In this document: positions 18,184 to 62,839 of the stretch, piece by piece
Numbering within the stretch: the first letter of the stretch is position 1
Layout: each line of letters begins with the position of its first letter
Origin: a virus
Taxonomy: Duplodnaviria > Heunggongvirae > Uroviricota > Caudoviricetes
IMG/VR virus record: IMGVR_UViG_3300010279_000462
Strand: one strand, 5' to 3'
Length of the DNA stretch: 64,000 nt
Made by a program: the position numbers and the translations under genes
Notes under the pieces: generated by a model
What the model was told of the DNA's origin: nothing
Database searches by the model: none
The model's input: the letters and a program-made list of their open reading frames with translations, nothing else

Positions 18184-19443
18184 ATGGACAATTTTCTAAC
18201 TGAGACTTCTTCAGCGAAAGTTAAAGACACTCCTACAACTTATACCGTAAAGTCCTTGGTAGAGGACGCAACGACATTTCTTCAATCCAGGGGTGACTAC
18301 CGTGACCGCGTAGTGAACTATATCAAGGGAACATGGCATCAATTTGAAAATTACTGCGAAACCAATAGCATTTTATTCTACCAGTCTGAATACAGTAACA
18401 GATTCATTGAAAGCCTTTCTATTGGTTTACAGCCTCTCAAACCGGAAACCATTAAGCGTAAGGTGGGCAATCTTAAAATGCTCGACCTGTACGCAAAAAA
18501 TGGCACATGGGAGAAGGATGCATTAGATTCCAAACCTAACCTTGAAGCGGAATTTTCTGAATTCATCGCAGCACAGGATGAGTTCTTAAAAACACGTCAC
18601 TATTCGAAATTTTCTTGTGAAACCATTTGTAAACAGACAACAGCTGTACTGAATTATCTTCAGAATAATGAAATCACCAGTTTCTCGGAAATCACTAGTG
18701 ATATCATTTCTGACTATGCTATTTCACTGAAGGGTCATGCAAAAAGTACTATGCGCTGTGAACTCAGCCGAATTAGACAGATTTTGCATAATGCCTACCT
18801 TCTAAAGTATACCGCTGATGATTTGTCCACTTACGTCCCAACGTACAATCTTGGCCAACCCCAAAGCAATGTTAAAATATGGCATTCTAGCGAGATAAAC
18901 AGAGTTCTGTCTGCGGTGGATCGGTCAAATCCTAAAGGTTTGCGGGATGCCGCTTATATCACCATTGCAGCAGAACTTGGGATGCGAAGTAAGGACATTA
19001 CTGACCTTAAGCTTTCGGATATTGATTGGGAAACTTGCACTATCTCGTTTGTCCAGAGCAAAACCGGGAAAGTCAATCCCCTTCCGCTTAATGAAAAAAT
19101 TGGCCGCGCCATTATTGACTATCTGAAAGTCAGACCCGATACGGATTGTGAATACCTATTTGTGAATATGAATCCTCCGTATGGCAAAATGAAGTCGTTC
19201 AATTCATCATTTAACAAGTATGTCAGCCGCTCCGGAGTCACTATTCCTGTTAATGCTCACCATAATCTTCACTCGCTCCGGGCTACCGTTGCGACCAAAC
19301 TTTTGAAAGAGGGCGTATCTCCTGACGATATCGTTTCTTTTCTGGGGCATTCCGACAGGGAGTCGCTTCACAACTATATCCGTATGGATATAGACAGCCT
19401 CCGAAATTGTGCATTGTCTTTTGAGAATGGTGAGTTTGTATGA
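18184..19443 (+). CDS. ritA: tyrosine recombinase RitA-like
   Basis: 419 aa. RBS AGGTGAGG. Motifs HSLRAT...LGHSD...LHNY (R-H-R-Y). Confidence 0.8.
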   Translation: MDNFLTETSSAKVKDTPTTYTVKSLVEDATTFLQSRGDYRDRVVNYIKGTWHQFENYCETNSILFYQSEYSNRFIESLSIGLQPLKPETIKRKVGNLKMLDLYAKNGTWEKDALDSKPNLEAEFSEFIAAQDEFLKTRHYSKFSCETICKQTTAVLNYLQNNEITSFSEITSDIISDYAISLKGHAKSTMRCELSRIRQILHNAYLLKYTADDLSTYVPTYNLGQPQSNVKIWHSSEINRVLSAVDRSNPKGLRDAAYITIAAELGMRSKDITDLKLSDIDWETCTISFVQSKTGKVNPLPLNEKIGRAIIDYLKVRPDTDCEYLFVNMNPPYGKMKSFNSSFNKYVSRSGVTIPVNAHHNLHSLRATVATKLLKEGVSPDDIVSFLGHSDRESLHNYIRMDIDSLRNCALSFENGEFV

Positions 19444-20420
19444 TGCGGGTTTACAAATACACAAGTGGACTATCCACACAGATACAATCCTTTATAGAGG
19501 AAAAGCGTGCTCTTGGATGCAAGTATGAAAAGGAGGCCAAAGTCTTTTATGAAATGGACAGATTTCTAGTTAGGGAAGGAGTTGTTGAGCCAATCCTCAC
19601 TCAGAATGTGGTTGAAAAATGGGTAGAGAAGCGTCCCAACGAGAAAAGAAAAAATCAACGTTGGCGACTAAATTTTACCAAGCGTTTTGTAGCTTATCTT
19701 CTGCTTCACCACTATGAAGCGTATTATCCTGAATACAAAATTTCCTCAAGCGATGACAAATGCTTCGTGCCATACATTTTCACAAACACGGAAATTGGCG
19801 ACCTTATTGCATATTTTAATACCATGAAGCCAAGTAGACAGTATCCTAATGGCCATATCGTACTTCCCTTACTGTTTCTAACACTTATATGCTGTGGGTT
19901 GCGGTCTGGTGAAGTTGCATCGCTTACAGTTAATGATGTTGATATTAAAAACGGCATTCTCACAATCAGAAATGCCAAGCACGGGAAAAGTCGCAGTATT
20001 CCTATTTCTGAAAGTATGTGCCTCAAATATGCTGAATACTATGATTTACTCCATACTAACAGCGACGGTAAGGATTATTTCTTCCCGAATGCACGTGGCA
20101 ACTGTCATCACACCAATGAAATCGAACGCAGATTTAAGGAGGCGCTATGGAACTGCGGCATTCCTTATAAAGGACGCGGTTATGGTCCTAGAGTCCATGA
20201 TCTTCGCCATACTTTTGCAGTTCGCGCCATGCAGAAGATTCGGAAGGAAAAAGGAAGTAATCTTATGGCACTTCCATATCTGTCAGTCTATTTAGGGCAC
20301 TACAACATGAACAAAACACAGCAATATTTGCACCTTGTTGTGGATGCATATCCAGAATTAATTGAGAAGCAGCAAGATTACCTTGGCGAAACAATACCAG
20401 TATGGGAGGTTTCAGAATGA
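19440..20420 (+). CDS. ritB: tyrosine recombinase RitB-like
   Basis: 326 aa. ATGA overlap with ritA. Motifs RHTFAVRA...LGHYNMNKTQQY. Confidence 0.8.
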   Translation: MMRVYKYTSGLSTQIQSFIEEKRALGCKYEKEAKVFYEMDRFLVREGVVEPILTQNVVEKWVEKRPNEKRKNQRWRLNFTKRFVAYLLLHHYEAYYPEYKISSSDDKCFVPYIFTNTEIGDLIAYFNTMKPSRQYPNGHIVLPLLFLTLICCGLRSGEVASLTVNDVDIKNGILTIRNAKHGKSRSIPISESMCLKYAEYYDLLHTNSDGKDYFFPNARGNCHHTNEIERRFKEALWNCGIPYKGRGYGPRVHDLRHTFAVRAMQKIRKEKGSNLMALPYLSVYLGHYNMNKTQQYLHLVVDAYPELIEKQQDYLGETIPVWEVSE

Positions 20421-21436
20421 GAACACCGGACTTTTCAAAATACTTAACGATGTTCCTTGAACACTATCTTCCAGAACTTAAGAATGCCAGCGAGAATACC
20501 TTGGCAACATACAGCGACACTTTCTGCTATTTTCTAACTTATTGTCAGGATGTGGAAGCAATGAAAATTGAGCGAATGTCGGTCAGTGATTTCACTGCGG
20601 AACTTGTTGAAAGATACCTGCACTGGATGGAAACAAGCCAAGGCAATAGTCTTGCAACTCGGAATAACCGACTGGCTACAATCCATTCTTTCGTTAGATT
20701 TTTGCAGCCCAGGGAACCAAAACTGCTACTCAACTTTCAGAAGATTCTTGCAATTCCAACAAAGAAAGCACCACAAAAAACTGTGCAGCCTCTCTCAAAG
20801 GAATCTGTCGCTGTACTACTTCGTCAGCCAGACACATCTACTCTCAAGGGAAGAAGGGATGCAACTGTTCTATGCGTGTTGTATGATACGGCTGCTCGTG
20901 TATCGGAAATCTGCAATCTCCGCATAGAGGATGTGCGGTTTGAGAATCCTCCGCATATTCGCATAATGGGAAAAGGAATGAAAGTGCGTACAGTTCCTAT
21001 TTTGCCAGCGACAGCTATAAACTTAAAAAGCTACCTTATAGAAACGCATCGATTAAAGCCTGAGTGCTATCACTTGCCTCTTTTCGTTAACCGTGATGGA
21101 GAACCCTTTACACGGTCCGGAATCAGGTATATTTTAAACAAATACGTCAAAATGGCCCATGAAATAGATCCATCTATTCCCGAAAGTCTTAATCCCCATC
21201 GTATCAGACATACCAAGGCAATGCATCTATATGAGGCGGTTGATGACCTTATCGATGTCCGTGATTTTCTCGGCCATGCTGATATAAAAACTACAAGTAT
21301 CTACGCTAGATCCAGTCTTGCCAAAAAGAGGAAGGCACAAGAGAAGATTTCGAATTCTCCTGTGCCTGAGATGGCATCTTGGCAACAGGATAAAGGCACA
21401 CTCGAATGGCTTAAAAACTATGGGCGCAAGAAATAG
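20417..21436 (+). CDS. ritC: tyrosine recombinase RitC-like
   Basis: About 339 aa. RBS GGGAGG 7 nt upstream. ATGA overlap with ritB. Motifs HRIRHTKAM...LGHADIKTTSIY. Confidence 0.8.
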   Translation: MRTPDFSKYLTMFLEHYLPELKNASENTLATYSDTFCYFLTYCQDVEAMKIERMSVSDFTAELVERYLHWMETSQGNSLATRNNRLATIHSFVRFLQPREPKLLLNFQKILAIPTKKAPQKTVQPLSKESVAVLLRQPDTSTLKGRRDATVLCVLYDTAARVSEICNLRIEDVRFENPPHIRIMGKGMKVRTVPILPATAINLKSYLIETHRLKPECYHLPLFVNRDGEPFTRSGIRYILNKYVKMAHEIDPSIPESLNPHRIRHTKAMHLYEAVDDLIDVRDFLGHADIKTTSIYARSSLAKKRKAQEKISNSPVPEMASWQQDKGTLEWLKNYGRKK

Positions 21437-21923: not shown

Positions 21924-23006
21924 ATGAAAAAGTACGTTTTGAACATCGATGACCGCAAGGCACTGGTAGGCCGCCTGATGGAGCTGACTGGGCTGAGTTC
22001 CCAGTACACCTATATGCCGCGGTGTGCCTACCTTGTCGGCAACTACACCGTTGAGAAGGAGGGAACGCTTGTGACGGACGAAACCGCAGACCAGCAGGTC
22101 ATTGAGACCCTGCTGAACGAGGGCATCATCGTGGACCCTGATATGCCGACCCAGCAGCCGAGTGTGGCAGAAGCACCGCAGGACGAGATGCCCGGCGAGG
22201 TGACCGAACAGACCGATGCCGAGGAGGAAGCAACCGCCGAGGAATCCTCGGATGTTGAGGAAACCGATGACGAGGAGGAAGATGACACCCCTGATGAATC
22301 CACGGAGTCCGAAAGCGAGGATGTGGATGACCTGACGGTCAGCGTTCCTATGGCGGGTCACACTCCACAGAGCATCCGCAACTTCCTGAACCTGATGTAC
22401 AGCCGCGGACCGCTGCTGAACAAGGCTCTGGGAACGAATTTCTCGGTATCGGATGCTTTGCTGGAAGCCTTGGATCAGGCGACCATCCGCACGGTGAATG
22501 AGATGCTGGATGAGCTGGAGGAGTACCGCCTCGGTGCGGGAGATACCGGCATGACCGGCATCCTCATCCTGCCGGATAAGATCAGCCTGTGCTTCGCCGG
22601 ACCGCTGAGTTCGGAACAGGTGCGCGTCTGCACCCAGCTGACTTCCGCCATGAACCGCATGGCGATCACCCAGAAGCGGATTCAGGCAAAGACCGTGAAC
22701 GATGAGAACGAGAAGTACGCTTTACGCATCTGGCTCATCCGCTTGGGTCTGAATGGCAACGAACACAAGGAACTGCGCAGAGTCCTGATGCAGAACCTTT
22801 CCGGCCATGCCGCCTTCCGCACGGCAGAGGAAGCTGAGAAGTTCCGTATCAAGGAAAAGGCAAAGCGCGACAAGCTGAAAGCCGCGAAACAGGCGGCACA
22901 GGGCGGCGACGCCGATGCCGGGGAAACGGGCGAGGCGGAAGCAGACGCGCCCACACAGCCCGACTGTGGGGCGGACACGGCGCAGATGCTGGAAGCGGGA
23001 GCGTAA
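21924..23006 (+). CDS. protein with amidoligase C-terminal-like domain and acidic linker (paralog of the downstream amidoligase C-terminus)
   Basis: C-terminal ~110 aa (…NDENEKYALRIWLIRLGLNGNEHKELRRVLMQNL…) align with the amidoligase C-terminus (…TDNEKYAMRCWMLRLGFIGDEFKTAREILLRNM…). D/E-rich segment in the middle. Confidence 0.6.
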   Translation: MKKYVLNIDDRKALVGRLMELTGLSSQYTYMPRCAYLVGNYTVEKEGTLVTDETADQQVIETLLNEGIIVDPDMPTQQPSVAEAPQDEMPGEVTEQTDAEEEATAEESSDVEETDDEEEDDTPDESTESESEDVDDLTVSVPMAGHTPQSIRNFLNLMYSRGPLLNKALGTNFSVSDALLEALDQATIRTVNEMLDELEEYRLGAGDTGMTGILILPDKISLCFAGPLSSEQVRVCTQLTSAMNRMAITQKRIQAKTVNDENEKYALRIWLIRLGLNGNEHKELRRVLMQNLSGHAAFRTAEEAEKFRIKEKAKRDKLKAAKQAAQGGDADAGETGEAEADAPTQPDCGADTAQMLEAGA

Positions 23007-23160
23007 GCTCCTGACCCCTTATGGGGCCGGCAGATAACCGAGAGCCTTTTTCATTGTACCGATATTACCTCTGAAAATGTACATTATCAAGCGGATTTTC
23101 CGCAATAATGTACACGATCATTGCCCTCGAAGATCGGTGATTATTTGACCCTTTATGGCC

Positions 23161-23189
23161 TTGATATACACCCAACATGACGGTAATAT
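23161..23189 (+). promoter_or_regulatory. promoter cassette copy TTGATA-N17-TAATAT
   Basis: Exact 17-nt spacing. ATGTACA and TGTACACGATCA motifs lie upstream. Confidence 0.6.
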
Positions 23190-23236
23190 GCACATACCGC
23201 AAGGGGAACAGAACAAGACCAAAGGAGAAGAACACC

Positions 23237-24172
23237 ATGAACGATAAGACCAGAGAGCAGATTGAAGCCATGAAGAAGCAGACCATCGGGGTCGAGATCG
23301 AGATGAACAACATCACCCGCGAGAAGGCAGCCAGAAAGGTTGCGGATTACTTCGGAACGACAGCGTGGAATGCAGCCGCCCAGTACGGCTACATGAGCTG
23401 GGCTTGTAAAGACCAGCAGGGCAGGGTTTGGAAGTTCCAGCGGGACATCAGCATCCACGGACCGGACAGCGAGAAGTGCGAACTGGTGACCCCCATCCTT
23501 ACCTACGAAGACATCGAGACCTTGCAGGAAATCGTCCGACTGCTTCGCAAGGCGGGTGCAAAGTCCAGCCCCAGCAGAGGATGCGGAGTTCACATCCACA
23601 TCGGAAAGGGCGACCACGATGCAAAGACCCTGCGAAACTTGGTCAACATCATGGCAGCCCACGAGGAGCAAATCGGCAGAGCGATTCGCATCGATGAGGG
23701 ACGCACTGGTCACTACTGCCAAGTGGTCAACTACCACTTCCTCAAAGAGCTGAACCGCAGAAAGCCCACCACCATGACCCAGCTTGCCGACATCTGGTAC
23801 GAGGGCAACGATGCAGACTACGGCAGAACCCAGCACTACAATTCCAGCCGGTACCATATGCTCAACCTCCACGCAACCTTCACCAAGGGTACGATTGAGT
23901 TCCGGCTTTTCCAATTCGCAGACCCTTCGGACGGCAAGCAGAACGGGCTGCACGCCGGTGAGCTGAAGGCATACATCCAGCTTTGCCTTGCGATGAGCCA
24001 GCTTGCCAAGACGGTGCGCACGGCAAGCCCCAAGCCCCAGCAGACCGACAATGAAAAGTACGCGATGCGCTGCTGGATGCTTCGGCTGGGCTTCATCGGA
24101 GACGAATTCAAAACGGCAAGGGAAATCCTTCTGCGGAATATGGAGGGCAACGCTTCCTGGCGCAACGCATGA
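23237..24172 (+). CDS. amidoligase (Amidoligase_2 / GCS2-like carboxylate-amine ligase family)
   Basis: N-terminal IGVEIEMN motif and GCS2-like overall profile. Adjacent to two GGCT genes, the conserved neighbourhood described for phage amidoligases. RBS AAAGGAGAAG. Confidence 0.6.
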   Translation: MNDKTREQIEAMKKQTIGVEIEMNNITREKAARKVADYFGTTAWNAAAQYGYMSWACKDQQGRVWKFQRDISIHGPDSEKCELVTPILTYEDIETLQEIVRLLRKAGAKSSPSRGCGVHIHIGKGDHDAKTLRNLVNIMAAHEEQIGRAIRIDEGRTGHYCQVVNYHFLKELNRRKPTTMTQLADIWYEGNDADYGRTQHYNSSRYHMLNLHATFTKGTIEFRLFQFADPSDGKQNGLHAGELKAYIQLCLAMSQLAKTVRTASPKPQQTDNEKYAMRCWMLRLGFIGDEFKTAREILLRNMEGNASWRNA

Positions 24173-24241
24173 GCGCAGGAAGTTCGGGCACCTATCGGGC
24201 GGGCAACCGCCCTTTAGGCGGTAGAAGGAGGCAGCAAAACC

Positions 24242-24472
24242 ATGAAAAATCAGACAACCGAAAAAGCACCCGGCAGAAGCTTTCGGGTGGTCATCACCGA
24301 GACGCTCAAGCGGGTGGTCGAGGTCAACGAAAGCGAACTCAAGGAACCCACAATGGACGAAGCCATCCAAACCGTCAGCGACTGGTGGCACAACGAGCAG
24401 ATTGTTCTGGAAGCAGAGGATTTCGATGGCGTGGAATTCACGCCCGCGGAGGGCGGTGGACAGGATGACTGA
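24242..24472 (+). CDS. small acidic hypothetical protein
   Basis: 76 aa. RBS AGGAGG. Lies between the amidoligase and GGCT genes. Confidence 0.45.
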   Translation: MKNQTTEKAPGRSFRVVITETLKRVVEVNESELKEPTMDEAIQTVSDWWHNEQIVLEAEDFDGVEFTPAEGGGQDD

Positions 24473-25001
24473 CCGATTCCGGCTGAACCTTGACACCGCC
24501 AGCCGAAAGCCGACACGGTATTATCTTGCCTACGGCAGCAACCTCGACATGGAGCGTATGGGACACAGATGCCCCTACGCAGTCCCCATCGGAACGACCG
24601 AGATCTACGGCTACCGGCTCCTGTTCAAGAGGAGCAAGACCGGCAGCTACGCGACCATCGAGCAGGACGCCAACGAAAGCGTCCCGGCTGTGGTCTGGCT
24701 GCTCTCGGAATACGATGAGCGTCTGCTCGACGGGTACGAGGGCTGTCCGAGGTACTACTACAAGAAGCAGTTCCAGCTTCCGGTCTGGAATTTGGAAGGG
24801 CATCGGATGAAAAAACTGAAACCCTGCATGGCATACATCCTGCACGAAGAACGACTGCTGGGCTGCCCCAGCCGGGACTACTTCAAGCTGCTGGATGACG
24901 GATACGCAGATTGGGGATTTCCCAAGGATGTCCTCTGCCGCGGGCTTTGCGCCAGCATCGGCAGGGTGGCAGCCATGCAGTTTCTCGGAAACAGCGGATG
25001 A
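24465..25001 (+). CDS. gamma-glutamyl cyclotransferase (AIG2/GGCT-like) 1
   Basis: YYLAYGSNLDMERM...GYRLLF...YEGCPRYY is the GGCT signature. Confidence 0.75.
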   Translation: MTDRFRLNLDTASRKPTRYYLAYGSNLDMERMGHRCPYAVPIGTTEIYGYRLLFKRSKTGSYATIEQDANESVPAVVWLLSEYDERLLDGYEGCPRYYYKKQFQLPVWNLEGHRMKKLKPCMAYILHEERLLGCPSRDYFKLLDDGYADWGFPKDVLCRGLCASIGRVAAMQFLGNSG

Positions 25002-25059
25002 GTACAATATCCACGATCTTGTGAGGAAATCATTGTGCAGGATATGATGCACACCGGCC

Positions 25060-25090
25060 TTGCTATTTGAGCAAAACAGAGGCATATATA
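25060..25090 (+). promoter_or_regulatory. promoter cassette copy (TTGCTA ... ATATAT)
   Basis: CCGGCCTTGCTATTTGAGCAAAACAGAGGCATATATAG. Confidence 0.45.
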
Positions 25091-25134
25091 GCATACCGCC
25101 AGACAAGAGCGGAAAACGAAGGGAGATAAAGAAC

Positions 25135-25626
25135 ATGAATAAAACAAAGTATTACATCGCCTACGGCAGCAACCTGTCGGTAAAGCAGATGGCGCACCGA
25201 TGCCCGGATGCCCGCGTTGCGGGTCAGGCGGTGCTGGAAGACTGGGAACTGCTGTTCAAGGGCTGTGCGACCATCGAACCGAACAAGGAGAAGAACACGC
25301 CTGTTCTGGTGTGGGAGATCTCCGAGGAAGATGAGAAGCGGCTGGATGTCTACGAGGGCTACCCGCATTACTACCGCAAGGAAGACCTGACGGTCGAGGT
25401 GATTAGCGAGGGAGCAGAACCGAAAACGGTCACCGCCATGGTCTACATCATGGAGAACGACTTCGGGCATACCTGTCCGGCCATCAACTATTACGGAGTC
25501 CTGCATGACAGCTACAGGGCTTTGCATTTCCCGATGCACGTCCTTGAGGGTGCGCTGAAGAAGTGCATCGGCAAGGAGGCGGCAGCCCGGATGATCAAGG
25601 AGGTGCAGCACAATGTTTCCGAATGA
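25135..25626 (+). CDS. gamma-glutamyl cyclotransferase (AIG2/GGCT-like) 2
   Basis: YYIAYGSNLSVKQMAHRCP...YEGYPHYY. Confidence 0.75.
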   Translation: MNKTKYYIAYGSNLSVKQMAHRCPDARVAGQAVLEDWELLFKGCATIEPNKEKNTPVLVWEISEEDEKRLDVYEGYPHYYRKEDLTVEVISEGAEPKTVTAMVYIMENDFGHTCPAINYYGVLHDSYRALHFPMHVLEGALKKCIGKEAAARMIKEVQHNVSE

Positions 25627-26071
25627 GAACACCGTAAAAGCCCTGCGCGCGAAGTTCCCGGTCGGCTGCCGTGTGGTGCTGGACCAGATGGACGATGTGC
25701 AGGCCCCGCCCATCGGGACGCAGGGAACCTGCCGAGGCGTGGATGATGCCGGCTCCGTAATGGTCGCGTGGGATTCAGGCGGAAGCCTGAGCGTTGCCTA
25801 TGGCGCGGACAGTTGCCACCGTGTGGCTTCCGAAGAAGAAATCAAGGTGTCGCTCGACCACATCGGTAAAACGCGACACAGGGGCGCATTTTGCCCCAGG
25901 TGCGGAACCAGAGTGGACAAGGAGTATGGACACCAGCTTCAGGCAGTCAGCCGGGTGGCGGACATCCTGATTTGCAACACTTGTGGAACGTCAGAAGCGA
26001 TGGAGGCTTTCCGTGGCAATCAGACGCCCCTTGCTGACTGGGCAATTGTGAAAGCGGGGTGGGTCGAATGA
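25613..26071 (+). CDS. hypothetical conserved phage protein (DUF4314-like)
   Basis: RBS AAGGAGG. VVLDQMDD...GTQG motif and a CPRCG...CNTCG zinc ribbon. Confidence 0.45.
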   Translation: MFPNENTVKALRAKFPVGCRVVLDQMDDVQAPPIGTQGTCRGVDDAGSVMVAWDSGGSLSVAYGADSCHRVASEEEIKVSLDHIGKTRHRGAFCPRCGTRVDKEYGHQLQAVSRVADILICNTCGTSEAMEAFRGNQTPLADWAIVKAGWVE

Positions 26072-26439
26072 AGGTGCTTTTGGTCGAACCGATGAAGCAC
26101 CCGCAGGAGATTGATATTCAGCCGGAGCTGAAAGAGTACTACCGAATCCTCGACTGCGACTGCATCACGGCGACCTACCCTTGGGTGGAGCCGATGGCGT
26201 TGGTGACCGATGACAACGGCCTCTTTACGGACAAGCTTTTCAGCCGGTTCATCCCGGAACTGCAGCAGGCCATCCGGGGCAGCTTCTTCCTCTGCGGGAT
26301 CGGTGGGGAGGACTTTACCGACCTGCCGCCGGACCTGATGGAGAAGTTCAAGAAGCGGTTCTGGTACCCGGAAGCCTTCATCCGAACCGCCAAAGGCATG
26401 ATGGCCTTCCGGCTGGCCGATGACGCACAGCCCGAATAA
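26069..26439 (+). CDS. hypothetical phage protein (DUF3846-like)
   Basis: Starts MKVLLVEPMK. 123 aa. Start overlaps the upstream stop. Confidence 0.4.
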
Positions 26440-26448
26440 ATGCAAAAG

Positions 26449-26480
26449 CCCCTCCAGCGAGATGCCGGAGGGGTTGGTTT
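26449..26480 (+). terminator. terminator-like GC hairpin (CCCCTCC...GGAGGGG) followed by TTGGTTT
   Basis: 7-bp GC stem directly after the 26439 stop. The U-tract is weak. Confidence 0.45.
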
Positions 26481-26683
26481 GTGGAGCGATTGGGGGCCGG
26501 AAAATATCGAGGACCCTTTTCCAGTTTACTGTATATTAGCTCTCAAATGCAAGAATAGCAAGCCGGAATACCGCAAGATCCTGCACGAACTTTGGGCGGC
26601 AGATGTGTGTATATGGTCGAAAGGAAAACGGAGAGTACGAGGAACAGCCCCAGCCTCTGCTGGGGGTTCCTTGGGGGATTCCC

Positions 26684-26935
26684 TTAAAGGAAATCCCTCA
26701 TGCTCATGCCGACTTCGTTGAGCTGCTGTTCAAGGCTCATGTAGTGCCATTCTTCGTCCTCGTTTTCTTCCTCCTCGTCCAGTTCTTCGGGGTAGGGGTC
26801 GTGCTTCCAGCCGCCCTTCCGGTATTCTTCTTCCCGAATGTCGTTGCGGTCGTAAATGTCCAGCTCGTATTCTTCTTCCAGCTCTGCGATGCGTTCCTCG
26901 ATGGCGGTTTCAATCTCGGTGATGGTCTTTTTCAT
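26684..26935 (-). CDS. small highly acidic hypothetical protein (minus strand)
   Basis: Starts MKKTITEIE with RBS GGAGG on the minus strand. A GC hairpin (CAGCCCCAGC/GCTGGGG) lies downstream at about 26650-26675. Confidence 0.5.
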   Translation of the reverse strand: MKKTITEIETAIEERIAELEEEYELDIYDRNDIREEEYRKGGWKHDPYPEELDEEEENEDEEWHYMSLEQQLNEVGMSMRDFL

Positions 26936-27083
26936 GGTCGTGTCCTCCGTTTTCCTTGTGTGTTTCTTTCCTTTCGGTGACTGTATATTCGCTCTAAAAC
27001 ACATATTTATCAAGGCCATTACGCGATATAAATCCACCAAAGAATGCCCCGGATGATTGGCGATAATATGATGTTTTATGGCC

Positions 27084-27112
27084 TTGCTATTCTTCGGACA
27101 TGACGGTAATAT
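27084..27112 (+). promoter_or_regulatory. promoter cassette copy TTGCTA-N17-TAATAT
   Basis: Exact spacing. TTTATGGCCTTGCTATTC subfamily. Confidence 0.6.
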
Positions 27113-27143
27113 GCACATACCGAAACGGAAAGGAGCAAACAAC

Positions 27144-27350
27144 ATGGAACGCTACACCTACGAGATCACCTTCACCCGGCTGGACGGCCAGCCCGAAGAA
27201 GTCCAGCAGTACACCGACGAGGGCTTTGCCAGAGAATGCTTCCGGCTTTTCGATGAGCCGGACAGCGCAGAGATGTACAGCCGCATCCGCCTGACCCGCC
27301 ACGACTGGGAAACCGGCACGGACGAGACGCTGGAAACCTTGGAATTCTGA
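27144..27350 (+). CDS. small acidic hypothetical protein (68 aa)
   Basis: RBS GGAAAGGAGC. First gene behind the promoter copy. Confidence 0.55.
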   Translation: MERYTYEITFTRLDGQPEEVQQYTDEGFARECFRLFDEPDSAEMYSRIRLTRHDWETGTDETLETLEF

Positions 27351-27365
27351 AAGGAGAGAACGAAC

Positions 27366-27905
27366 ATGGATAAGAACTGGAACAAGGCCCGCCTTGATGA
27401 ACTGGCAGCCGATTTTGGCAGCGCGGCATCCCGCCGCAAGCTGGTTCAGGAATTCGGGGATTACCCCGATGCCCTGTGGGGCAACAACGAGAACGGTGAG
27501 AAGGTGATGCTTTCCATCCGGAAGGACGGTCTCACCGAGCGTGTGTTCCAAAACAACCACTGGGTGCGCGTCAGCGAGTACGGTGCGGAAGGACAGATGG
27601 AGGGTGAGACCTACGAGGGGCGGCGGGCTGAATGCCCGAAGCCGACCGAGACCGAACCGGAGGAGCTGGAACTTTCGGACGCGCAGAACGCCCGCAACGA
27701 TGAAATCTACAACGCCGCCTTCGATTTCTGCAAGGTGATGGCCGAGGATGAGAACCTTGAATGGAACATGGAGATCATTGGACAGCTTGCGGACTTTGCC
27801 GCAGAACTCCTGACCGCCCACGGCAGCCGCGTCCGCTTCCCCTCGGTGGTCATCGAGCCGGATGATACCCAGCACATCGAAGAATACTACAGCGAGGAAC
27901 AGTGA
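27366..27905 (+). CDS. acidic hypothetical protein (179 aa)
   Basis: RBS AAAGGAGAG. Co-transcribed with the 27144 gene. Confidence 0.55.
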   Translation: MDKNWNKARLDELAADFGSAASRRKLVQEFGDYPDALWGNNENGEKVMLSIRKDGLTERVFQNNHWVRVSEYGAEGQMEGETYEGRRAECPKPTETEPEELELSDAQNARNDEIYNAAFDFCKVMAEDENLEWNMEIIGQLADFAAELLTAHGSRVRFPSVVIEPDDTQHIEEYYSEEQ

Positions 27906-27951
27906 CACATTTGCCCGAACACAAGGCTGAATGATCGTGTACATTAGCCAC

Positions 27952-27980
27952 TTGCTATTGCCGAACCGTGACGGTAATAT
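27952..27980 (+). promoter_or_regulatory. promoter cassette copy TTGCTA-N17-TAATAT
   Basis: Preceded by GAATGATCGTGTACATT. Confidence 0.6.
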
Positions 27981-28011
27981 ACAGCTACCAAAACGAAAGG
28001 GGTACGAAACC

Positions 28012-28272
28012 ATGACCTACACGAAAATCAGCCTTTACACTTCCAACGGAATCCCGGAGGCACTCAGCAATCTTTGGTACGGAGCAGAAAGCTCGGTGGT
28101 CGAGATTCGGGATGCGGTCGAAGATGCCGAAAACGGCAAAGACCTCCTGCGGCGGCTGGGTGACATAAAGCTCCTGCGGCGGTTCACCCTCGACCGGGAG
28201 AACGAGCAGAGAATTCGACTGAAAAGCACGGACTGCTTCGGGAATGTAAGCTACCTTGAAATCCGAAAGTAA
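28012..28272 (+). CDS. small hypothetical protein (86 aa)
   Basis: RBS AAAGGGG. Starts MTYTKIS. Confidence 0.5.
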   Translation: MTYTKISLYTSNGIPEALSNLWYGAESSVVEIRDAVEDAENGKDLLRRLGDIKLLRRFTLDRENEQRIRLKSTDCFGNVSYLEIRK

Positions 28273-28390
28273 GCGGAAGGACGGGCAGGAGCAAGGGGCT
28301 GGGAAACCGGCCTTTTGCTCGTGTCCGCTCAGTAAAAAGTCGCCCGAATATGTACAAATCATCCGGCAAATGATCGTGTGATCTAGCCGC

Positions 28391-28419
28391 TTGATAGTGT
28401 GCGGACGTGACGGTAATAT
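28391..28419 (+). promoter_or_regulatory. promoter cassette copy TTGATA-N17-TAATAT
   Basis: Upstream ATGTACA...AATGATCGTGTGA. The leader contains GGGGGAAAGCCCC. Confidence 0.65.
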
Positions 28420-28480
28420 ACAGTCACCGCAAGGGGGAAAGCCCCACGGACGACAAAAAACAACGCTGGAGGATACAAAA

Positions 28481-28924
28481 ATGAAGAAGAACGAAGACCG
28501 CATCAACAAACTTTTCGAGGAGCTGGTTCCCATTAGCGGCAAGGCCGACAGCCTCGCCGGGGAGCTGGTCAGAGCCATCAGCCGCATCGGATACCGATTC
28601 TACAACGACGGCGACCTTGTGAACATTGGGTACGGCAAGGAAACCTGCAACCCGGCAGCCCGCTTCCTGATCGCCAAGGGCAATAACGAGATTTCCGACC
28701 TGACGGTTGCCCTTTGGGAAATCTTCAGCGAGGACGCCTACGAAAAGGTGCTGGACACCTTGGAAGGCGCGGTTGCCGACTACATCGAGCAGAACCCCGA
28801 CCTTCGCAAGCAGCCCACCGAAGATATGTGGAGCTTCCGGGATGCGGAAGAAGACAAGGATGACAGCTGGCTAGAGGAAGATGACTGCGAGGAAGACTAC
28901 TACGACGAGGCAGAAGATTTCTAA
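28481..28924 (+). CDS. acidic hypothetical protein (147 aa)
   Basis: RBS GGAGGA. Starts MKKNEDR. Confidence 0.55.
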   Translation: MKKNEDRINKLFEELVPISGKADSLAGELVRAISRIGYRFYNDGDLVNIGYGKETCNPAARFLIAKGNNEISDLTVALWEIFSEDAYEKVLDTLEGAVADYIEQNPDLRKQPTEDMWSFRDAEEDKDDSWLEEDDCEEDYYDEAEDF

Positions 28925-28938
28925 AACACACCAGACAG

Positions 28939-28970
28939 GGGAGCTTGCCGGAAACGGCGGCTCCTTTTCT
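28939..28970 (+). terminator. terminator-like GC hairpin followed by TTTTCTT
   Basis: GGAGCTTGCCG-GAAA-CGGCGGCTCC then TTTTCTT. Confidence 0.45.
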
Positions 28971-29030
28971 TGTGTCAGAACCCGTAAATGTACACCGATC
29001 TGAGGGCGAATGATCGTGTAGTATAGCCGC

Positions 29031-29059
29031 TTGATAATGTGGGACCGTGACGGTAATAT
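29031..29059 (+). promoter_or_regulatory. promoter cassette copy TTGATA-N17-TAATAT
   Basis: Upstream AATGTACA...GAATGATCGTGTAGTATAGCCGC. Confidence 0.65.
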
Positions 29060-29091
29060 ACACTCACAAAAACGAAAGCGAGGAAACGAAC

Positions 29092-29286
29092 ATGAAAAAG
29101 AAGACCCTTACCAAGAAGCAGCAGGAAGCCCTCCTGGAGATTGCCAAGCGCCTGATGGCATCGGTGGACAGCCGCGGCGACCTTGAGGAACGCGGATGCG
29201 ACAGCGAGGACTTCATCGAGGTTCCGGTCTGGGGCATCCAGAAGGCTATGGAGGAAGCCTACCTTCTGGGCAAAGCGAGCCGGTAA
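29092..29286 (+). CDS. small hypothetical protein (64 aa)
   Basis: RBS GCGAGGAAACG. Starts MKKKTLT. Confidence 0.5.
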   Translation: MKKKTLTKKQQEALLEIAKRLMASVDSRGDLEERGCDSEDFIEVPVWGIQKAMEEAYLLGKASR

Positions 29287-29397
29287 GCCCCAGACAGCCC
29301 CCACAAAGGGGCGCAGAAACAAGCAAGCAACGACCCAAGCCAGACCGCACAAGCCCCACGGAGGGGCTGTGTGGCGGCGTGGGGAAAGGACGGAGGA

Positions 29398-29622
29398 ATG
29401 AAGAACATGGAAGAAATCATGATGGATATCATCGTGGAAATCTACAACCACATGGATGAGGGCGACAAAGAAGCCTTCACGCTGGAGGATGCCAAGGAGA
29501 TGGTCGAAGACCAGATCCGGATGGATAAGGAGGCTGGTCGGGAACCGCTGGACTACGACCCACAGTTCTTCTACGACAACATCGTGGACCTCATGGAGCA
29601 GGATGCCGAGGACGAGGATTGA
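29398..29622 (+). CDS. small highly acidic hypothetical protein (about 74 aa)
   Basis: RBS GGACGGAGGA. Starts MKNMEE. Confidence 0.45.
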   Translation: MKNMEEIMMDIIVEIYNHMDEGDKEAFTLEDAKEMVEDQIRMDKEAGREPLDYDPQFFYDNIVDLMEQDAEDED

Positions 29623-29671
29623 TGTACATTCTGCCCGGTATTCCGGGCAGATGATCGTGTAGTATAGCCGC

Positions 29672-29700
29672 TTGATAGTGTGGGGCAGTGACGGTAATAT
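29672..29700 (+). promoter_or_regulatory. promoter cassette copy TTGATA-N17-TAATAT
   Basis: Upstream GATGTACA...AGATGATCGTGTAGTATAGCCGC. Confidence 0.65.
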
Positions 29701-29756
29701 ACAGACACCGAAAGGGAAAAGCCCCAAGGAAAACAAAACACACGGAGGATACTACC

Positions 29757-30059
29757 ATGAAAAAAACCTTTACCAGCACGAAGAACGAGTACCGCTTCAA
29801 GACCACCACCACGCAGGAAGACCTTGAAATGCAGGTTTGCGCCGGAGACGGTATGGTGTGCAAGTACGGTGACCATATCCTGATGGTTGACCCCTATTGG
29901 AAGGGCGGATTCATCGCCGCCATCTACGAGTTCATTGAAACCCCGGAGGAAACCGGGCTTTGCGAATGCGAATGCCGCTTGAATTTCTGCGAGAAGTCGG
30001 AAGCCTCTTTCGAGGATGGCGGCCACGCAATGGCATGGGCCATCAGCCGGGTGCAGTAA
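29757..30059 (+). CDS. cysteine-rich small hypothetical protein (100 aa)
   Basis: RBS CACGGAGGA. Starts MKKTFT. Contains CECECRLNFC. Confidence 0.55.
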   Translation: MKKTFTSTKNEYRFKTTTTQEDLEMQVCAGDGMVCKYGDHILMVDPYWKGGFIAAIYEFIETPEETGLCECECRLNFCEKSEASFEDGGHAMAWAISRVQ

Positions 30060-30178
30060 AGCACCCAAGGGCAAGGCTCCCGGCAGGGGGCTTTTGCTCG
30101 TTGTGGCGTATCCTCCGCGTAGAATTATACACATAAATCCGACAATACCGAGTGCGAATGATTGTGTATCATAGCCGC

Positions 30179-30207
30179 TTGCTATATCCCGGCACTGACG
30201 GTAATAT
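30179..30207 (+). promoter_or_regulatory. promoter cassette copy TTGCTA-N17-TAATAT
   Basis: Upstream TATACA...GAATGATTGTGTATCATAGCCGC. The leader contains GGGGGAAAGCCCC. Confidence 0.6.
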
Positions 30208-30264
30208 ACAGACACCGAAAGGGGGAAAGCCCCACGGAAACAAAACACACGGAGGATACACACC

Positions 30265-30642
30265 ATGATGAAGAAAGCGAAAACCTACCTTGCCAGCATC
30301 GAGAAGGCCACCACCGAGCGGGAGCTGCTCGGCATCGAGATCCAGTTCAAGCAGGACATGACGATCAGCTGCGATGACCTCGGAAAACTTTGCAGGGCGG
30401 CAGAAGACAAGCGGTACACCCTGCGGAACAACGAGGAGACCAAGCGGCTGAAGCACATCCTTTTCTTCCGTACCAAGGCGGAGATGGACGCCTACCACGA
30501 CATGAGCCGCAAGCCGGAAGCGTGGAGCGCAGAGGAAATCGAACACCAGCGCATTCGCTTCTGCAGCGTTTGGCAGGTCATCGAGGAAGCGGAGCTTGCC
30601 GATGAGTATGAGGCTTGGAAGGAAGCCAACCCCAACGCATAA
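30265..30642 (+). CDS. hypothetical protein (125 aa)
   Basis: RBS CACGGAGGA. Starts MMKKAKT. Confidence 0.55.
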   Translation: MMKKAKTYLASIEKATTERELLGIEIQFKQDMTISCDDLGKLCRAAEDKRYTLRNNEETKRLKHILFFRTKAEMDAYHDMSRKPEAWSAEEIEHQRIRFCSVWQVIEEAELADEYEAWKEANPNA

Positions 30643-30650: not shown

Positions 30651-30682
30651 GGACACACGCCCCGCAAGGGGCTGTGTCTCGT
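30651..30682 (+). terminator. weak terminator-like hairpin (ACACGCCCC-GCAA-GGGGCTGTGT)
   Basis: GC stem with one bulge. No clear U-tract. Confidence 0.3.
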
Positions 30683-30753
30683 ATCCACCATGTTTCCGAA
30701 AATGGAAAAGATTTTGAATACAAAATAAAAAGTTTCCCAAATGGGAAAATGAT

Positions 30754-30782
30754 TTGATATTCTGCGTATAATATGCTATACT
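30754..30782 (+). promoter_or_regulatory. sigma70-like promoter TTGATA-N17-TATACT
   Basis: Exact spacing. Upstream direct repeats AAATGGAAAAGATTTTGA / AAATGGGAAAATGATTTGA. Confidence 0.5.
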
Positions 30783-30804
30783 AGGAAAAAGGAGGCGGGA
30801 AAGT

Positions 30805-32022
30805 ATGGTTGTGCGAAAAGAATACCTTGATCAGCTTTGGGCATGGAAAGATGAGCAGCAGATTAAGGTTGTGACCGGAATTCGACGCTGTGGAAAGTCT
30901 GTACTTTTGGAACAGTATCAGCAACGTCTTTTAGAAGAGGGGGTTGCACCGGAACAGATTATTTCAATCAATTTTGAAGACATGGATAATGAGCCTTTGA
31001 AGGATTATAGGGAACTGTATCGGTATCTCAAGGAGCATTTGTGCGTTGGTAAAATGACCTATATCTTTTTGGATGAAATTCAGGAAGTTGAGTATTTTGA
31101 AAAGGTGGTCGACAGTCTTTATATCCGAGATGGTGTGGACATCTATATTACAGGCTCGAATGCTTATATGTTGTCAAGTGAGCTTGCGACTCTTTTGTCA
31201 GGTCGATATACAGAAATAAAGATGCTGCCGCTTTCATTCCGCGAATATAGCGCTGTGACAGGTTTGCCGAAAGAAGAAGGTTTTGCGGAGTTTATGAAAA
31301 CCGGCGGAATTCCGTATGTGGCTGCAATGAACCGCACAGATGACAAGGTAAATCAATATCTTGAAGGAATTTATAACACTGTTATCATAAAAGATATTGA
31401 GCAGCGGCAGGCAAGACGAGAAAAAGAAGGCGGAAGACGAAAAATCACGGATATTACGCTGCTGAAGACAATTGCACGATATCTCGCAAGTGTAATCGGT
31501 AGCCCGGTATCTATGAAGAGCATAACTGATTATCTGACATCAGCAGGAAGAAAGGTTTCACAGAACACAGTTAGCGATTATGTTGAAGCATTAACGGAAT
31601 CGTTCGTCTTTTACCCGGTAGAACGCTTTGACATTGTTGGAAAGCAGATTCTAAAGGTCAATAATAAGTTTTACATGGTCGATATGGGAATCAGGAACCA
31701 CATTCTTCCAAGAAAGCGTTATGATCTTGGATTTACCATTGAAAATATTGTGTTCCTTGAACTGACACGAAGAGGAGGACAAATCAATATAGGAAAATAT
31801 GGCTCCACAGAAGTAGATTTTGTGGTACAGAAGGAAGGCGTTCTGACTTATTATCAGGTGACAGCTGACATGACAGCCGAAGAAACATTTGAACGAGAGA
31901 TGCGGCCTTTGCGTAGCATCCAGGACAACTATGAAAAGATTGTATTGACACTGGATCGGTTCTCTCTTGGAAATTACGACGGCATAAAAGTCGTGAATGT
32001 CATTGACTGGCTATTGACATGA
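30805..32022 (+). CDS. AAA+ ATPase (DUF4143-type ATP-binding protein)
   Basis: Walker A GIRRCGKS and Walker B IFLDEIQ. In a low-GC island. Confidence 0.75.
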   Translation: MVVRKEYLDQLWAWKDEQQIKVVTGIRRCGKSVLLEQYQQRLLEEGVAPEQIISINFEDMDNEPLKDYRELYRYLKEHLCVGKMTYIFLDEIQEVEYFEKVVDSLYIRDGVDIYITGSNAYMLSSELATLLSGRYTEIKMLPLSFREYSAVTGLPKEEGFAEFMKTGGIPYVAAMNRTDDKVNQYLEGIYNTVIIKDIEQRQARREKEGGRRKITDITLLKTIARYLASVIGSPVSMKSITDYLTSAGRKVSQNTVSDYVEALTESFVFYPVERFDIVGKQILKVNNKFYMVDMGIRNHILPRKRYDLGFTIENIVFLELTRRGGQINIGKYGSTEVDFVVQKEGVLTYYQVTADMTAEETFEREMRPLRSIQDNYEKIVLTLDRFSLGNYDGIKVVNVIDWLLT

Positions 32023-32270
32023 AGAGGATGCGTATGAATGATGCAAACTTCGGTCCGAAGAAACAAGATGGCAATGCCAATCGGGGTACCACTGATAAAA
32101 TGAGCGTTACGGAATCGCTCACAGGAATTCTAAAAGATGAAAACCTTGAGGCACTAAAAGCGGAGAGGATAAAAGAAAAGTACGAAACTGTTTAATACAC
32201 GATATATTTCAAGGACTTCTTCGGAGGTCCTTTTTCTTTTGCTCATTTTCAAAGAAGGGAGGGAAAGCCA

Positions 32271-62698: not shown

Positions 62699-62784
62699 AC
62701 ATTTTGTCGGTATTGCTTCGATCTCGGCATTCTGTCAGGCAGATAATTTGTCGGTATTATGCCGATTTATCTTTGCGACAGAAC

Positions 62785-62813
62785 TTGCTATTCGGGTCCA
62801 TATGCGGCAATAT
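62785..62813 (+). promoter_or_regulatory. promoter cassette family copy TTGCTA-N17-CAATAT
   Basis: ACTTGCTATTCGGG...GGCAATATAC resembles the 27084 copy. Precedes the serine recombinase. Confidence 0.45.
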
Positions 62814-62839
62814 ACGACTACCAAAAGGAGGACAACACA

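Follow-up and report, generated by a model that had tools for sequence, protein, structure and literature searches.

The question raised by this locus is what a block of very small genes does in a temperate phage, between its replication and packaging modules, and how these genes are switched on. Gut Clostridia (Faecalibacterium, Blautia, Enterocloster and relatives) have abundant phages, whose accessory genes are almost all not understood. A reading made from the sequence only had placed eight ORFs at 27144-30642 of the window, which is the whole analyzed stretch of 64,000 nucleotides, and had assigned them to anti-defence or host takeover. All eight ORFs were confirmed at these coordinates, and independent gene callers found the same ORFs in two ENA contigs and one Logan contig. 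The location was also given correctly, as replication and modification genes lie on one side of the array and TerS and TerL on the other. The limits of the array were drawn too narrowly: the eight ORFs are inside, but further members are present at 23160, 26530-26562 and 26684-26935 and, as a weak copy, at 62784. The genes and the neighboring operon are:

ending at 26439, plus strand: amidoligase operon, with Amidoligase_2 (23237-24172), DpnD/PcfM-like (about 24242-24472), GGACT (twice), DUF4314 and DUF3846 (Pfam)
26684..26935, minus strand: ORF A, 83 aa, charge -21, independent gene call, 37 loci, third-position share 0.61
27144..27350, plus strand: ORF B, 68 aa, charge -11
27366..27905, plus strand: ORF C, 179 aa, charge -22, two domains, without promoter of its own
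28012..28272, plus strand: ORF D, 86 aa, charge 0
28481..28924, plus strand: ORF E, 147 aa, charge -23, 1044 homologous clusters
29092..29286, plus strand: ORF F, 64 aa, charge 0, DUF6900
29398..29622, plus strand: ORF G, 74 aa, charge -20
29757..30059, plus strand: ORF H, 100 aa, cysteine-rich, Nmad4
30265..30642, plus strand: ORF I, 125 aa, all-helical, final gene before TerS in most relatives

Homologues of the ORFs were found in 9 to 51 related loci with a median amino acid identity of 73-81%, and in all nine ORFs codon position 3 takes 50-62% of the nucleotide differences, compared with 33% expected for non-coding DNA. The sequence-only reading had named a lack of conservation together with non-coding character as the outcome that would speak against it; because the ORFs are conserved in relatives and show the third-position bias, this objection falls away. 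The block of short, mostly acidic, conserved genes is a genuine part of a temperate phage of gut Clostridia. The description of many products as strongly acidic is accurate for ORFs B, C, E and G and extends to ORF H (-7), but not to D and F, which carry no net charge, or to I (-4). ORF A is a ninth member of the array, very acidic and divergent from the others. The acidity of the array is far above the background of the window, where the other ORFs have a median charge of about -0.01 per residue. Signal peptides and membrane segments were not found in the array proteins.

Recognizable catalytic motifs are indeed missing from the array, but two members belong to Pfam families, with matches above the gathering threshold across the full domain; the other ORFs resemble no known family. 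ORF F matches DUF6900 (PF21841) with an E value of 4e-18 and 65.4 bits (cut-off 24.1, profile positions 2-51 of 52), and ORF H matches Nmad4 (PF18756) with an E value of 5e-24 and 84.9 bits (cut-off 27, profile positions 2-86 of 87). Nmad4 stands for nucleotide modification associated domain 4. Structure prediction for two of the array proteins gave generic helical bundles with equally generic fold matches; ORF E is modelled as a helical bundle followed by a disordered acidic tail with an aromatic last residue. Homologues of ORF E also occur in distant phages that do not have this gene neighborhood. The start of ORF G is ambiguous, as other gene callers placed it at 29371 (GTG) or 29407 and not at 29398.

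Inspection of the intergenic regions revealed a repeated promoter of an extended sigma-A type, with the -35 hexamer TTGMTA, a 17-nt spacer and the -10 hexamer TAATAT. Together with flanking boxes and leader about 70 nt are conserved, comprising an upstream box ATGATCGTGTA..TTTAGCCG, a spacer box GTGACGG and a leader that starts with RCA..ACCGAAAGG. The pattern CTTGMTA-N17-TAATATRCA has 10 matches in the window, whereas 0.04 are expected. A weight matrix of 74 nt built from relatives identified seven strong plus-strand copies with 65-100 bits, compared with a maximum of -26 in shuffled sequence, and the promoter logo was derived from 240 unique copies. The promoter is repeated 9-10 times over about 7 kb, is present in at least 120 related gut viral contigs and also in prophages of isolate genomes, and is restricted to the module of array and amidoligase operon and to the integrase. 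The transcription signals are, in order of position:

23160..23192, plus strand: promoter of the amidoligase operon, exact pattern match, 65 bits
26449-26473: terminator in the window behind the orphan promoter
26530..26562, minus strand: orphan promoter, no ORF behind it, 33 bits, followed by a conserved hairpin and U run
26982..27014, minus strand: promoter of ORF A, -10 hexamer GAATAT, 16 bits
27083..27115, plus strand: promoter of the bicistronic unit B-C, 77 bits
27951..27983, plus strand: promoter of ORF D, 82 bits, present or absent jointly with ORF C
28279..28328, plus strand: terminator hairpin after D, dG -38.8, GAAA loop, UUUUGCU next
28390..28422, plus strand: promoter of ORF E, 90 bits
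28927..28976, plus strand: intrinsic terminator after E, GC stem, GAAA loop, U tract
29030..29062, plus strand: promoter of unit F-G, 88 bits
29334..29383, plus strand: strong hairpin between F and G, dG -33, no U tract, no promoter after it
29631..29650, plus strand: perfect 8-bp hairpin after G, no U tract, compensatory variants in relatives
29671..29703, plus strand: promoter of ORF H, 100 bits
30061..30110, plus strand: terminator hairpin after H, GC stem, UUUUGCU next
30178..30210, plus strand: promoter of ORF I, 94 bits
30651..30678, plus strand: hairpin after I, GCAA loop, no U tract
62784..62816, plus strand: weaker promoter of the serine integrase, -10 hexamer CAATAT, same leader as the array copies

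It had been proposed that each unit has its own promoter copy. This applies to six of the eight ORFs (copies at 27083, 27951, 28390, 29030, 29671 and 30178), but the ORFs at 27366 and 29398 are second cistrons: ORF C starts 15 nt after ORF B, and a promoter between ORFs F and G is missing in 44 of 44 relatives. The promoter-headed units are thus mono- or bicistronic, contain a strong ribosome-binding site and usually end in a GC-rich hairpin or terminator. GC hairpins, which had been noticed for several units, follow six ORFs (28012, 28481, 29092, 29398, 29757 and 30265) with dG values of -21 to -39 kcal/mol, and none was found after ORF C. Three of them (after 28012, 28481 and 29757) are canonical terminators with an adjacent U tract and compensatory changes in relatives. 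The hairpins lie 20-70 nt upstream of the next -35 hexamer and outside the conserved promoter block, and are missing before two copies; the hairpin after G abuts the upstream box of the ORF H promoter. A divergent promoter pair with a distance of 71 nt at 26982 (minus)/27083 (plus) recurs at 23090 (minus)/23161 (plus).

Copies in the same slot of different genomes are 75% identical, compared with 58% for different slots of one genome. It follows that the shared core is maintained by selection and not by recent copying; signs of gene conversion or of frequent exchange are absent. The presence/absence polymorphism that had been suggested as a check was found for a few whole units, but order and content are otherwise conserved across dozens of loci. 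Between ORFs A and B, 63 loci carry a unit of promoter and 58-aa ORF that the window lacks; ORF C, which is optional within the phage family and frequently frameshifted, is present or absent as a block with the promoter downstream of it; and locus L062 contains an ORF B paralogue inserted after H. The ends of the ORF C indel are located at the ribosome-binding-site/ATG region, outside the promoter.

Conservation of the boxes goes beyond the needs of sigma-A, and they would form a putative binding site for one shared phage regulator, by which all units would switch together; a candidate regulator gene was sought in the window and not found. The serine integrase gene has its true start at 62841, and the weak copy at 62784..62816 precedes it by 25 nt; perfect copies lie in front of serine recombinase genes in three relatives (L009, L059 and L092). 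Sharing of the promoter with the integrase suggests that the set would be expressed at entry and establishment. The relatives of the TerL protein are cos phages, and their deposited genomes begin at TerS/TerL. From this type of TerL a cos site can be expected just upstream of terS, and the array would consequently be packaged last and injected first. This polarity is deduced from the TerL relatives together with textbook knowledge; from the contig ends the genome ends could not be placed. Each short unit could then be transcribed as soon as its DNA enters, and the small, highly acidic, helical and non-enzymatic products would most likely bind host or phage macromolecules in the course of host takeover or anti-defence. 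We consider the chances evenly balanced for this reading, in which the region is an accessory module under common control in a temperate siphophage of gut Clostridia, of the HK97/phi3626 type; an action of the block on the host early in infection is probable.

The assignment to an anti-defence or host-takeover class was not borne out by database comparison, since no array ORF matches such a family, including anti-restriction, anti-CRISPR and DNA-mimicry proteins, in Pfam, PHROG, NCBIfam, PADLOC or PDB sequences. Alternative cassettes at equivalent positions in relatives likewise contain no recognizable anti-defence genes. In addition, the array is mostly syntenic and not a hypervariable island, unlike typical anti-defence islands with their fast turnover. 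The anti-defence or host-takeover reading appears nevertheless plausible. We counted in its favor, as indirect points, the strong acidity, the integrase-shared promoter and the presumed first-injected DNA end. Counted against it were the lack of acidity of D, F and I and the identity of H as Nmad4, pointing to nucleotide modification and away from inhibitor function.

Early and pre-early regions of lytic phages are exemplified by the class I genes of T7 with ocr and by the first-step-transfer region of T5. The leading regions of plasmids also contain anti-defence islands (Samuel et al. 2024, PMC11541004). Common to these regions and the array are small, often acidic proteins clustered behind several strong promoters on DNA that would enter the cell first, polarity and timing of entry being deduced for the array. 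The array differs in that its promoters are of the ordinary double-stranded and not of the Frpo-type single-strand hairpin type: in a search for Frpo/ssi-type structures, long single-strand hairpins whose stem recreates the -35/-10 hexamers, these hexamers were not paired in the best local folds, and there was no Rfam match. Furthermore, no array ORF matches ocr, ArdA, PsiB, SSB or another known leading-region gene, and a sequence relationship to DNA mimics and acidic inhibitors (Ocr, ArdA, DMP19 and Rsd-type anti-sigma factors) is absent. A tentative and rather unlikely proposal is that the stretch from about 23.1 to 30.7 kb corresponds in the phage to the leading region of plasmids, as a first-entering cos end whose units are fired together before circularization from regulator-controlled, integrase-shared promoters and provide about 10 new families of acidic inhibitors against host defences or DNA-binding proteins of gut Clostridia. 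Within this proposal ORF E may be one of the inhibitors, with its modelled helical bundle and SSB-like acidic, aromatic-ended tail. The block supplies about 10 conserved protein families in separate units, one of them with more than 1000 sequence clusters, and with the sharply defined promoter that marks them, hundreds of related phages could be searched for co-regulated genes. Defence inhibitors would be new tools and would help to explain how these prophages spread; otherwise, the promoter family would be a handle on the gene expression program of an uncultured phage lineage.

In another reading, which we regard as unlikely, the small proteins are not host inhibitors but belong, as regulators or accessory components, to a phage pathway that modifies nucleotides, DNA or proteins. 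Such a pathway would involve the neighboring amidoligases and gamma-glutamyl cyclotransferases, Nmad4, SAM synthetase and methyltransferases. Consistent with it, one promoter family heads both the array and the amidoligase/GGACT operon, most relatives keep the block amidoligase-GGACT-DUF4314-DUF3846-array in synteny, ORF H belongs to Nmad4, and genes for a SAM synthetase, a ParB-methylase and two further methylases are also present in the window. On the other hand, a modification-linked domain is present in only one of the nine small ORFs, the others have no catalytic motifs, the two modelled proteins are predicted helical bundles, and the ORF E homologues of distant phages do without such neighbors.

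Morons of lambdoid and HK97-like phages are single genes that interrupt an otherwise conserved gene order and bring a promoter and a terminator of their own. They are also discussed by Arbiol et al. (PMC2839356). The array resembles them in its self-contained promoter-gene-terminator units beside the head genes of a temperate siphophage, and true morons adjoin it. A PDC-S01 defence-candidate ATPase gene with a GC content of 0.41 lies beside the array, and is missing from a 99.98%-identical relative; in L043 a Phd/PIN-like toxin-antitoxin pair occupies the same site. Near the array only these insertions show classical moron behavior. It is of similarly low probability that the units are prophage-expressed morons which benefit the lysogen by lysogenic conversion, superinfection exclusion or defence, and not genes for entry or the early lytic phase. 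The array genes have a single promoter family in common, are conserved in place as a syntenic core of the lineage and have a GC content of 0.54-0.55, equal to the flanks and the rest of the phage, whereas the insertions use different, AT-rich promoters; insertion combined with deviant base composition was found for PDC-S01 but not for the array. The absence of signal peptides and membrane segments also argues against morons.

Besides morons, the known architecture that comes closest is that of the PeSL (promoter-early stem-loop) cassettes, which T4-type phages carry in their hyperplastic regions (Arbiol et al. 2010, PMC2839356; Comeau et al. 2014, PMC4122927). As in PeSLs, sigma-70-type promoters with a -35/-10 consensus are repeated in the intergenic regions together with GC stem-loops, are conserved over about 70-100 bp, and flank small function-unassigned genes with their own transcription start and stop, and some whole units are gained and lost. 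In contrast to PeSLs, which belong to T4-like myoviruses, the array belongs to a temperate Firmicutes siphophage, AT richness is not a feature of its upstream box, the distance of the hairpins from the -35 hexamer means that no composite stem-loop/promoter motif is formed, and gene order is largely fixed without a sign of exchange between copies. That the repeats are mainly recombinational, serving as portable homology patches that shuffle cassettes with the genes as changing cargo, is very unlikely. The 58-aa ORF unit, the ORF C block, the B paralogue and the duplication of the divergent pair at 23.1 and 27.0 kb would fit; but synteny is otherwise conserved, same-slot copies of different genomes are more alike than copies within a genome and show no signature of exchange, and the ORF C indel does not end in the promoter. 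Chance ORFs in repeat-rich spacer DNA without coding function were rejected with near certainty, as third-position shares of 0.50-0.62 in nine ORFs, 9-51 loci, independent gene calls, two Pfam matches and hundreds to a thousand homologous protein clusters oppose them and no point in their favor was found.

The conserved sequence just downstream of the hairpin after I is the insertion point for foreign genes. The orphan promoter at 26530..26562 is a candidate source of a short RNA.

All eight ORFs which the sequence-only reading had described between 27144 and 30642 could be confirmed, and independent gene calls in ENA and Logan assemblies gave the same frames. These assemblies additionally contain an 83-aa minus-strand ORF, here designated A, that had not been listed. 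We refer to ORFs A to I, together with the repeated promoter copies among them, as the array.

ORFs of the array and net charge of the encoded proteins.
26684-26935, minus strand: ORF A, -21
27144-27350, plus strand: ORF B, -11
27366-27905, plus strand: ORF C, -22
28012-28272, plus strand: ORF D, 0
28481-28924, plus strand: ORF E, -23
29092-29286, plus strand: ORF F, 0
29398-29622, plus strand: ORF G, -20
29757-30059, plus strand: ORF H, cysteine-rich, -7
30265-30642, plus strand: ORF I, -4

More than 120 related stretches with the promoter pattern were retrieved from IMG/VR. Using tblastn, each ORF was found in 9-51 of the related stretches with a median amino-acid identity of 73-81%, and in every ORF the third codon position takes 50-62% of the nucleotide differences. 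The possibility, raised in the sequence-only reading, that the ORFs are not conserved and non-coding is refuted by their recurrence in relatives, the third-position excess and the independent gene calls. The description of the proteins as mostly acidic holds for A, B, C, E and G (-11 to -23) but not as a universal trait, D and F having no net charge; the median of the remaining window proteins lies near -0.01 per residue. None of the array proteins contains a hydrophobic segment.

The window represents most of the genome of a temperate siphophage, or a prophage, with almost all genes on the plus strand. It begins with replication genes (family A DNA polymerase, DUF932, SNF2 helicase, D5-type primase-helicase), followed by genes for a SAM synthetase, a ParB-methylase and two more DNA methylases, and by a low-GC insert with three tyrosine recombinases. 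In the adjoining segment, 21924-26439, an amidoligase-like gene occurs in duplicate (21924-23006 and 23237-24172), together with two genes for gamma-glutamyl cyclotransferase (GGACT), DUF4314, DUF3846 and, at about 24242-24472, a DpnD/PcfM-like gene; DUF4314, DUF3846 and PcfM are typical of Firmicutes conjugative elements. After DUF3846 comes the array, then a low-GC AAA_14/DUF4143 ATPase gene, TerS (Terminase_4) and TerL, then portal, ClpP-type protease and head genes, and finally tail genes, the endolysin and a serine integrase at the right end. This order, with the replication genes before the array and TerS and TerL after it, bears out the earlier placement of the array between the replication and packaging modules. 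Enterocloster clostridioformis LM41 also has prophages in which amidoligases are paired and a GGACT gene is present, but a comparable array is not discussed in their description (PMC11318856). A DNA search of the GenBank phages revealed no close relatives, and the lineage is known only from metagenomes and prophages.

A repeat search of the window showed that direct repeats of 58-102 nt precede most ORFs. The aligned repeats share CTTGMTA, 17 nt and then TAATATRCA, a pattern with 10 occurrences in the window compared with 0.04 expected. In a logo from 240 unique copies of the window and its relatives about 70 positions are conserved: an upstream box gATGATCGTGTA..TTTAGCCG, the -35 hexamer TTG(A/C)TA, GTGACGG immediately 5' of the -10 hexamer TAATAT, and the transcript start RCA..ACCGAAAGG. 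A GGAGG-type ribosome-binding site follows downstream, and the start codon is located 28-64 nt past the -10 hexamer. By their consensus, hexamers and spacing presumably fit the Firmicutes housekeeping sigma factor, and the extra boxes outside the hexamers, ATGATCGTGTA and GTGACGG, exceed what this factor needs. The window was scored with a 74-nt weight matrix built from the relatives only.

Promoter copies in the window, with weight-matrix score and the genes behind them.
23090, minus strand: about -0.2 bits
23161, plus strand: 65 bits, operon from Amidoligase_2 to DUF3846
26561, minus strand: 33 bits, orphan copy (26530-26562), no ORF behind it
27013, minus strand: 16 bits, acidic ORF A
27084, plus strand: 77 bits, ORFs B and C
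27952, plus strand: 82 bits, ORF D
28391, plus strand: 90 bits, ORF E
29031, plus strand: 88 bits, ORFs F and G
29672, plus strand: 100 bits, ORF H
30179, plus strand: 94 bits, ORF I
62785, plus strand: about -1.7 bits, serine integrase

Because scores on shuffled sequence were never above -26, the promoter family is limited to 23.1-30.2 kb and one site near 62.8 kb. Within 21924-26439 it drives every gene except the first amidoligase-like gene. The serine integrase truly starts at an ATG at 62841 (MEVMVDRKRAAAYCRVS), not at 62759 as in the ORF list, and the 62785 copy is situated 25 nt before it. This copy has the same leader as the array copies (ACGACTACCAAAAGGAGG), with CAATAT as its -10 hexamer. 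Three further viral contigs have perfect copies in front of serine recombinase genes. A good terminator 3' of the endolysin gene precedes the weak integrase copy (62784-62841).

The divergent pairs 23090(-)/23161(+) and 27013(-)/27084(+) have an identical spacing of 71 nt, and both are covered by an 87-nt repeat (23122-23208 and 27045-27131, 78% identical). From 23090(-), transcription would run in antisense direction into the first of the amidoligase-like genes. The successive copies at 28390, 29030 and 29671 are spaced 640 and 641 nt apart despite differing units (one 147-aa gene versus two genes of 64 and 74 aa), which is probably a coincidence.

The earlier claim that each ORF has its own promoter has to be restricted. 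C begins 15 nt after B and no promoter is present between F and G in 44 of 44 relatives, so that six of the eight ORFs are individually promoted and C and G are second cistrons. The statement that several units end in GC hairpins was confirmed: strong hairpins, mostly with GNRA-type loops (dG -21 to -39 kcal/mol), are located 3' of D, E, F, G, H and I, and none is present behind B or C. UUUU(G/C)CU follows the hairpins of D, E and H, which are ordinary intrinsic terminators preserved in relatives by compensatory changes. The hairpins after F, G and I have no U tract. With promoter copies at one end and hairpins at the other, the units are thus self-contained, each comprising promoter, leader, gene or genes and hairpin. 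The orphan copy is followed by an invariant ACAGTAAACTGGAA (14-nt conserved start), a hairpin and a U run in 32 distinct sequences of relatives; the hairpin shows some compensatory changes among them, and the window terminator lies at 26449-26473. The region 26440-26562(-) thus encodes a candidate phage RNA of 45-90 nt. Searches with Rfam, at the gathering threshold over the whole window and in E-value mode over 22.8-32.4 kb, gave no known RNA family in repeats, leaders or hairpins.

The array has the same order in most related loci: DUF3846, the orphan promoter, A on the minus strand, B with or without C, D, E, F and G, H, I and TerS. Promoter copies in the same slot of different genomes are 75% alike, those in different slots of one genome 58%. 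It is therefore selection on function that keeps the common core, whereas gene conversion or recent copying does not account for it, and the same comparison rules out a concerted evolution of the repeats. Variation occurs unit by unit. C and the promoter behind it are present in about a third of the loci, often frameshifted; an extra unit of promoter and 58-aa ORF between A and B, missing from the window, is found in 63 loci; and one locus (L062) has a paralogue of B after H, the only case of paralogy found among the array proteins. In a few loci the same promoter heads other small genes (DUF7678, a double zinc ribbon protein, a Phd-like antitoxin); none of these alternative cassettes contains a known anti-defence gene. 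The comparison proposed earlier for presence or absence of cassettes thus revealed gains and losses of whole units within an order that is fixed in most loci. Neither the motif nor any other repeated promoter occurs in prophages with more distant E homologues (40-67% identity), so the architecture is lineage-specific. Taken together, these results establish the array as a genuine, clearly delimited module of regulatory elements and genes shared across the lineage. The 12 kb around it are 95-99% identical in genome contigs of three isolates from two bacterial families, named Faecalibacterium intestinale, Blautia faecis and Clostridium fessum (L131-L133); either the host range is very broad or transfer was recent, or else the assemblies are mislabelled or contaminated. 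Isolates with a relative of the prophage are Clostridium fessum SNUG30386, Blautia faecis DFI.3.66 and Faecalibacterium intestinale CLA-AA-H281.

The proteins had been described as of unknown function and without recognisable enzymatic motifs. In Pfam, F is DUF6900 and H is Nmad4; for A, B, C, D, E, G and I, searches of Pfam, PHROG, NCBIfam and PADLOC gave no match, and no source names them. The E family comprises 1044 clusters, none of them named; remote members are encoded by a 595-kb uncultured phage and by marine phages. In the AlphaFold model of E (pLDDT 84) a helical bundle gives way to a disordered acidic tail, in which a W and the terminal Y or F are conserved. The model of I (pLDDT 89) has five helices with matches of coiled-coil type only, and C consists of two domains, the C-terminal one of which also occurs behind unrelated N-termini. 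PDB profile and sequence searches with E, H and I gave nothing meaningful.

The observations to be explained are a single promoter family, many short terminated units, real proteins and conservation across a phage lineage. The extra boxes may be the site of a common regulator that would exert all-or-none control of the set. Since the integrase shares its promoter with the array and the amidoligase operon, the set would be expressed at entry and establishment. TerL is related to that of cos phages deposited as linear genomes with TerS and TerL at the start (phi3626, SfV, mEp390, Staphylococcus phage 3A, Paenibacillus and Gordonia phages), and the head module is of the portal/ClpP-protease type; a cos site is thus expected just upstream of terS, and the array would be the last DNA packaged. 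In lambda the last-packaged end enters the cell first. By analogy the array would be the first DNA injected, and its short units with their own promoters could be transcribed on entry. When contig ends were compared for genome ends, gene I was located mid-contig in most viral contigs. Small, very acidic, non-enzymatic proteins produced at that stage would most plausibly have nucleic-acid-handling proteins of the host as binding partners, for host takeover or anti-defence. We have high confidence in the architectural and regulatory part of this explanation and moderate to low confidence in the functional part; joined in one statement, the two have about an even chance of being correct. The anti-defence label is a reasonable hypothesis, not a finding.

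The small proteins might instead serve the neighbouring modification machinery, with which they share the promoter; H belongs to Nmad4, a name reflecting association with nucleotide-modification genes. A literature search on Nmad4, DUF3846 and DUF4314 yielded nothing functional. The units might also be morons expressed by the prophage. Autonomy of promoter and terminator is common to them and to classical morons, but the latter have neither the common promoter nor the native base composition of the array. According to a third alternative the repeats matter mainly as recombination patches, as in the PeSL (promoter-early stem-loop) cassette of T4-type phages, the closest described architecture, in which small genes of unknown function are flanked by repeated strong sigma-70-like promoters with stem-loops, through which they are shuffled (PMC2839356, PMC4122927). 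The array follows the same promoter-plus-hairpin logic; in contrast, it belongs to a temperate Firmicutes siphophage, its hairpins lie outside the conserved block, its upstream region is not AT-rich and its genes mostly keep a fixed order. The islands of plasmid leading regions (PMC11541004) and the early regions of T7 and T5 are functional analogies only and have no gene in common with the array, whose promoters, unlike those of the leading regions, are not single-strand hairpin promoters. Searches by tblastn with E against plasmids and with I against phages gave no matches and thus no link to conjugative leading regions.

The ATPase gene between I and TerS (30805-32022, GC 0.41) matches the PADLOC defence candidate PDC-S01 (E 1.9e-155). 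The gene, in an insert of roughly 30690-32205, is equipped with an AT-rich promoter (30754-30782) and a terminator (32211-32232) of its own. Its absence from a contig (L122) that is 99.98% identical across the array marks it as a recent moron-type insertion. At the same junction another locus (L043) contains a Phd/YefM-like antitoxin and a PIN-like toxin with its own promoter. Both insertions start past a conserved CGTATCCnnnnTGTTT (window 30680-30700), so the junction looks like an insertion hot spot, possibly near cos. A 53-aa ORF of the window (32034-32195) resembles the C-terminus of the L043 antitoxin, which suggests successive replacements.

The three tyrosine recombinase genes (18184-21436) are tandem and overlapping, form a block of 40-43% GC within a 55% GC phage and are all present in L122 and another contig (L121); the arrangement resembles a 'recombinase in trio' mobile element. 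In the replication module a 199-aa protein (7521-8120) contains a PemK/MazF-type toxin domain (E 1e-20); a gene that would obviously encode its antitoxin was not identified. A 300-nt direct repeat (52207-52506 and 57315-57614, 74% identity) joins two large late genes, 51983-56947 and 57091-59703, the second of which encodes a GDSL lipase/acylhydrolase domain.
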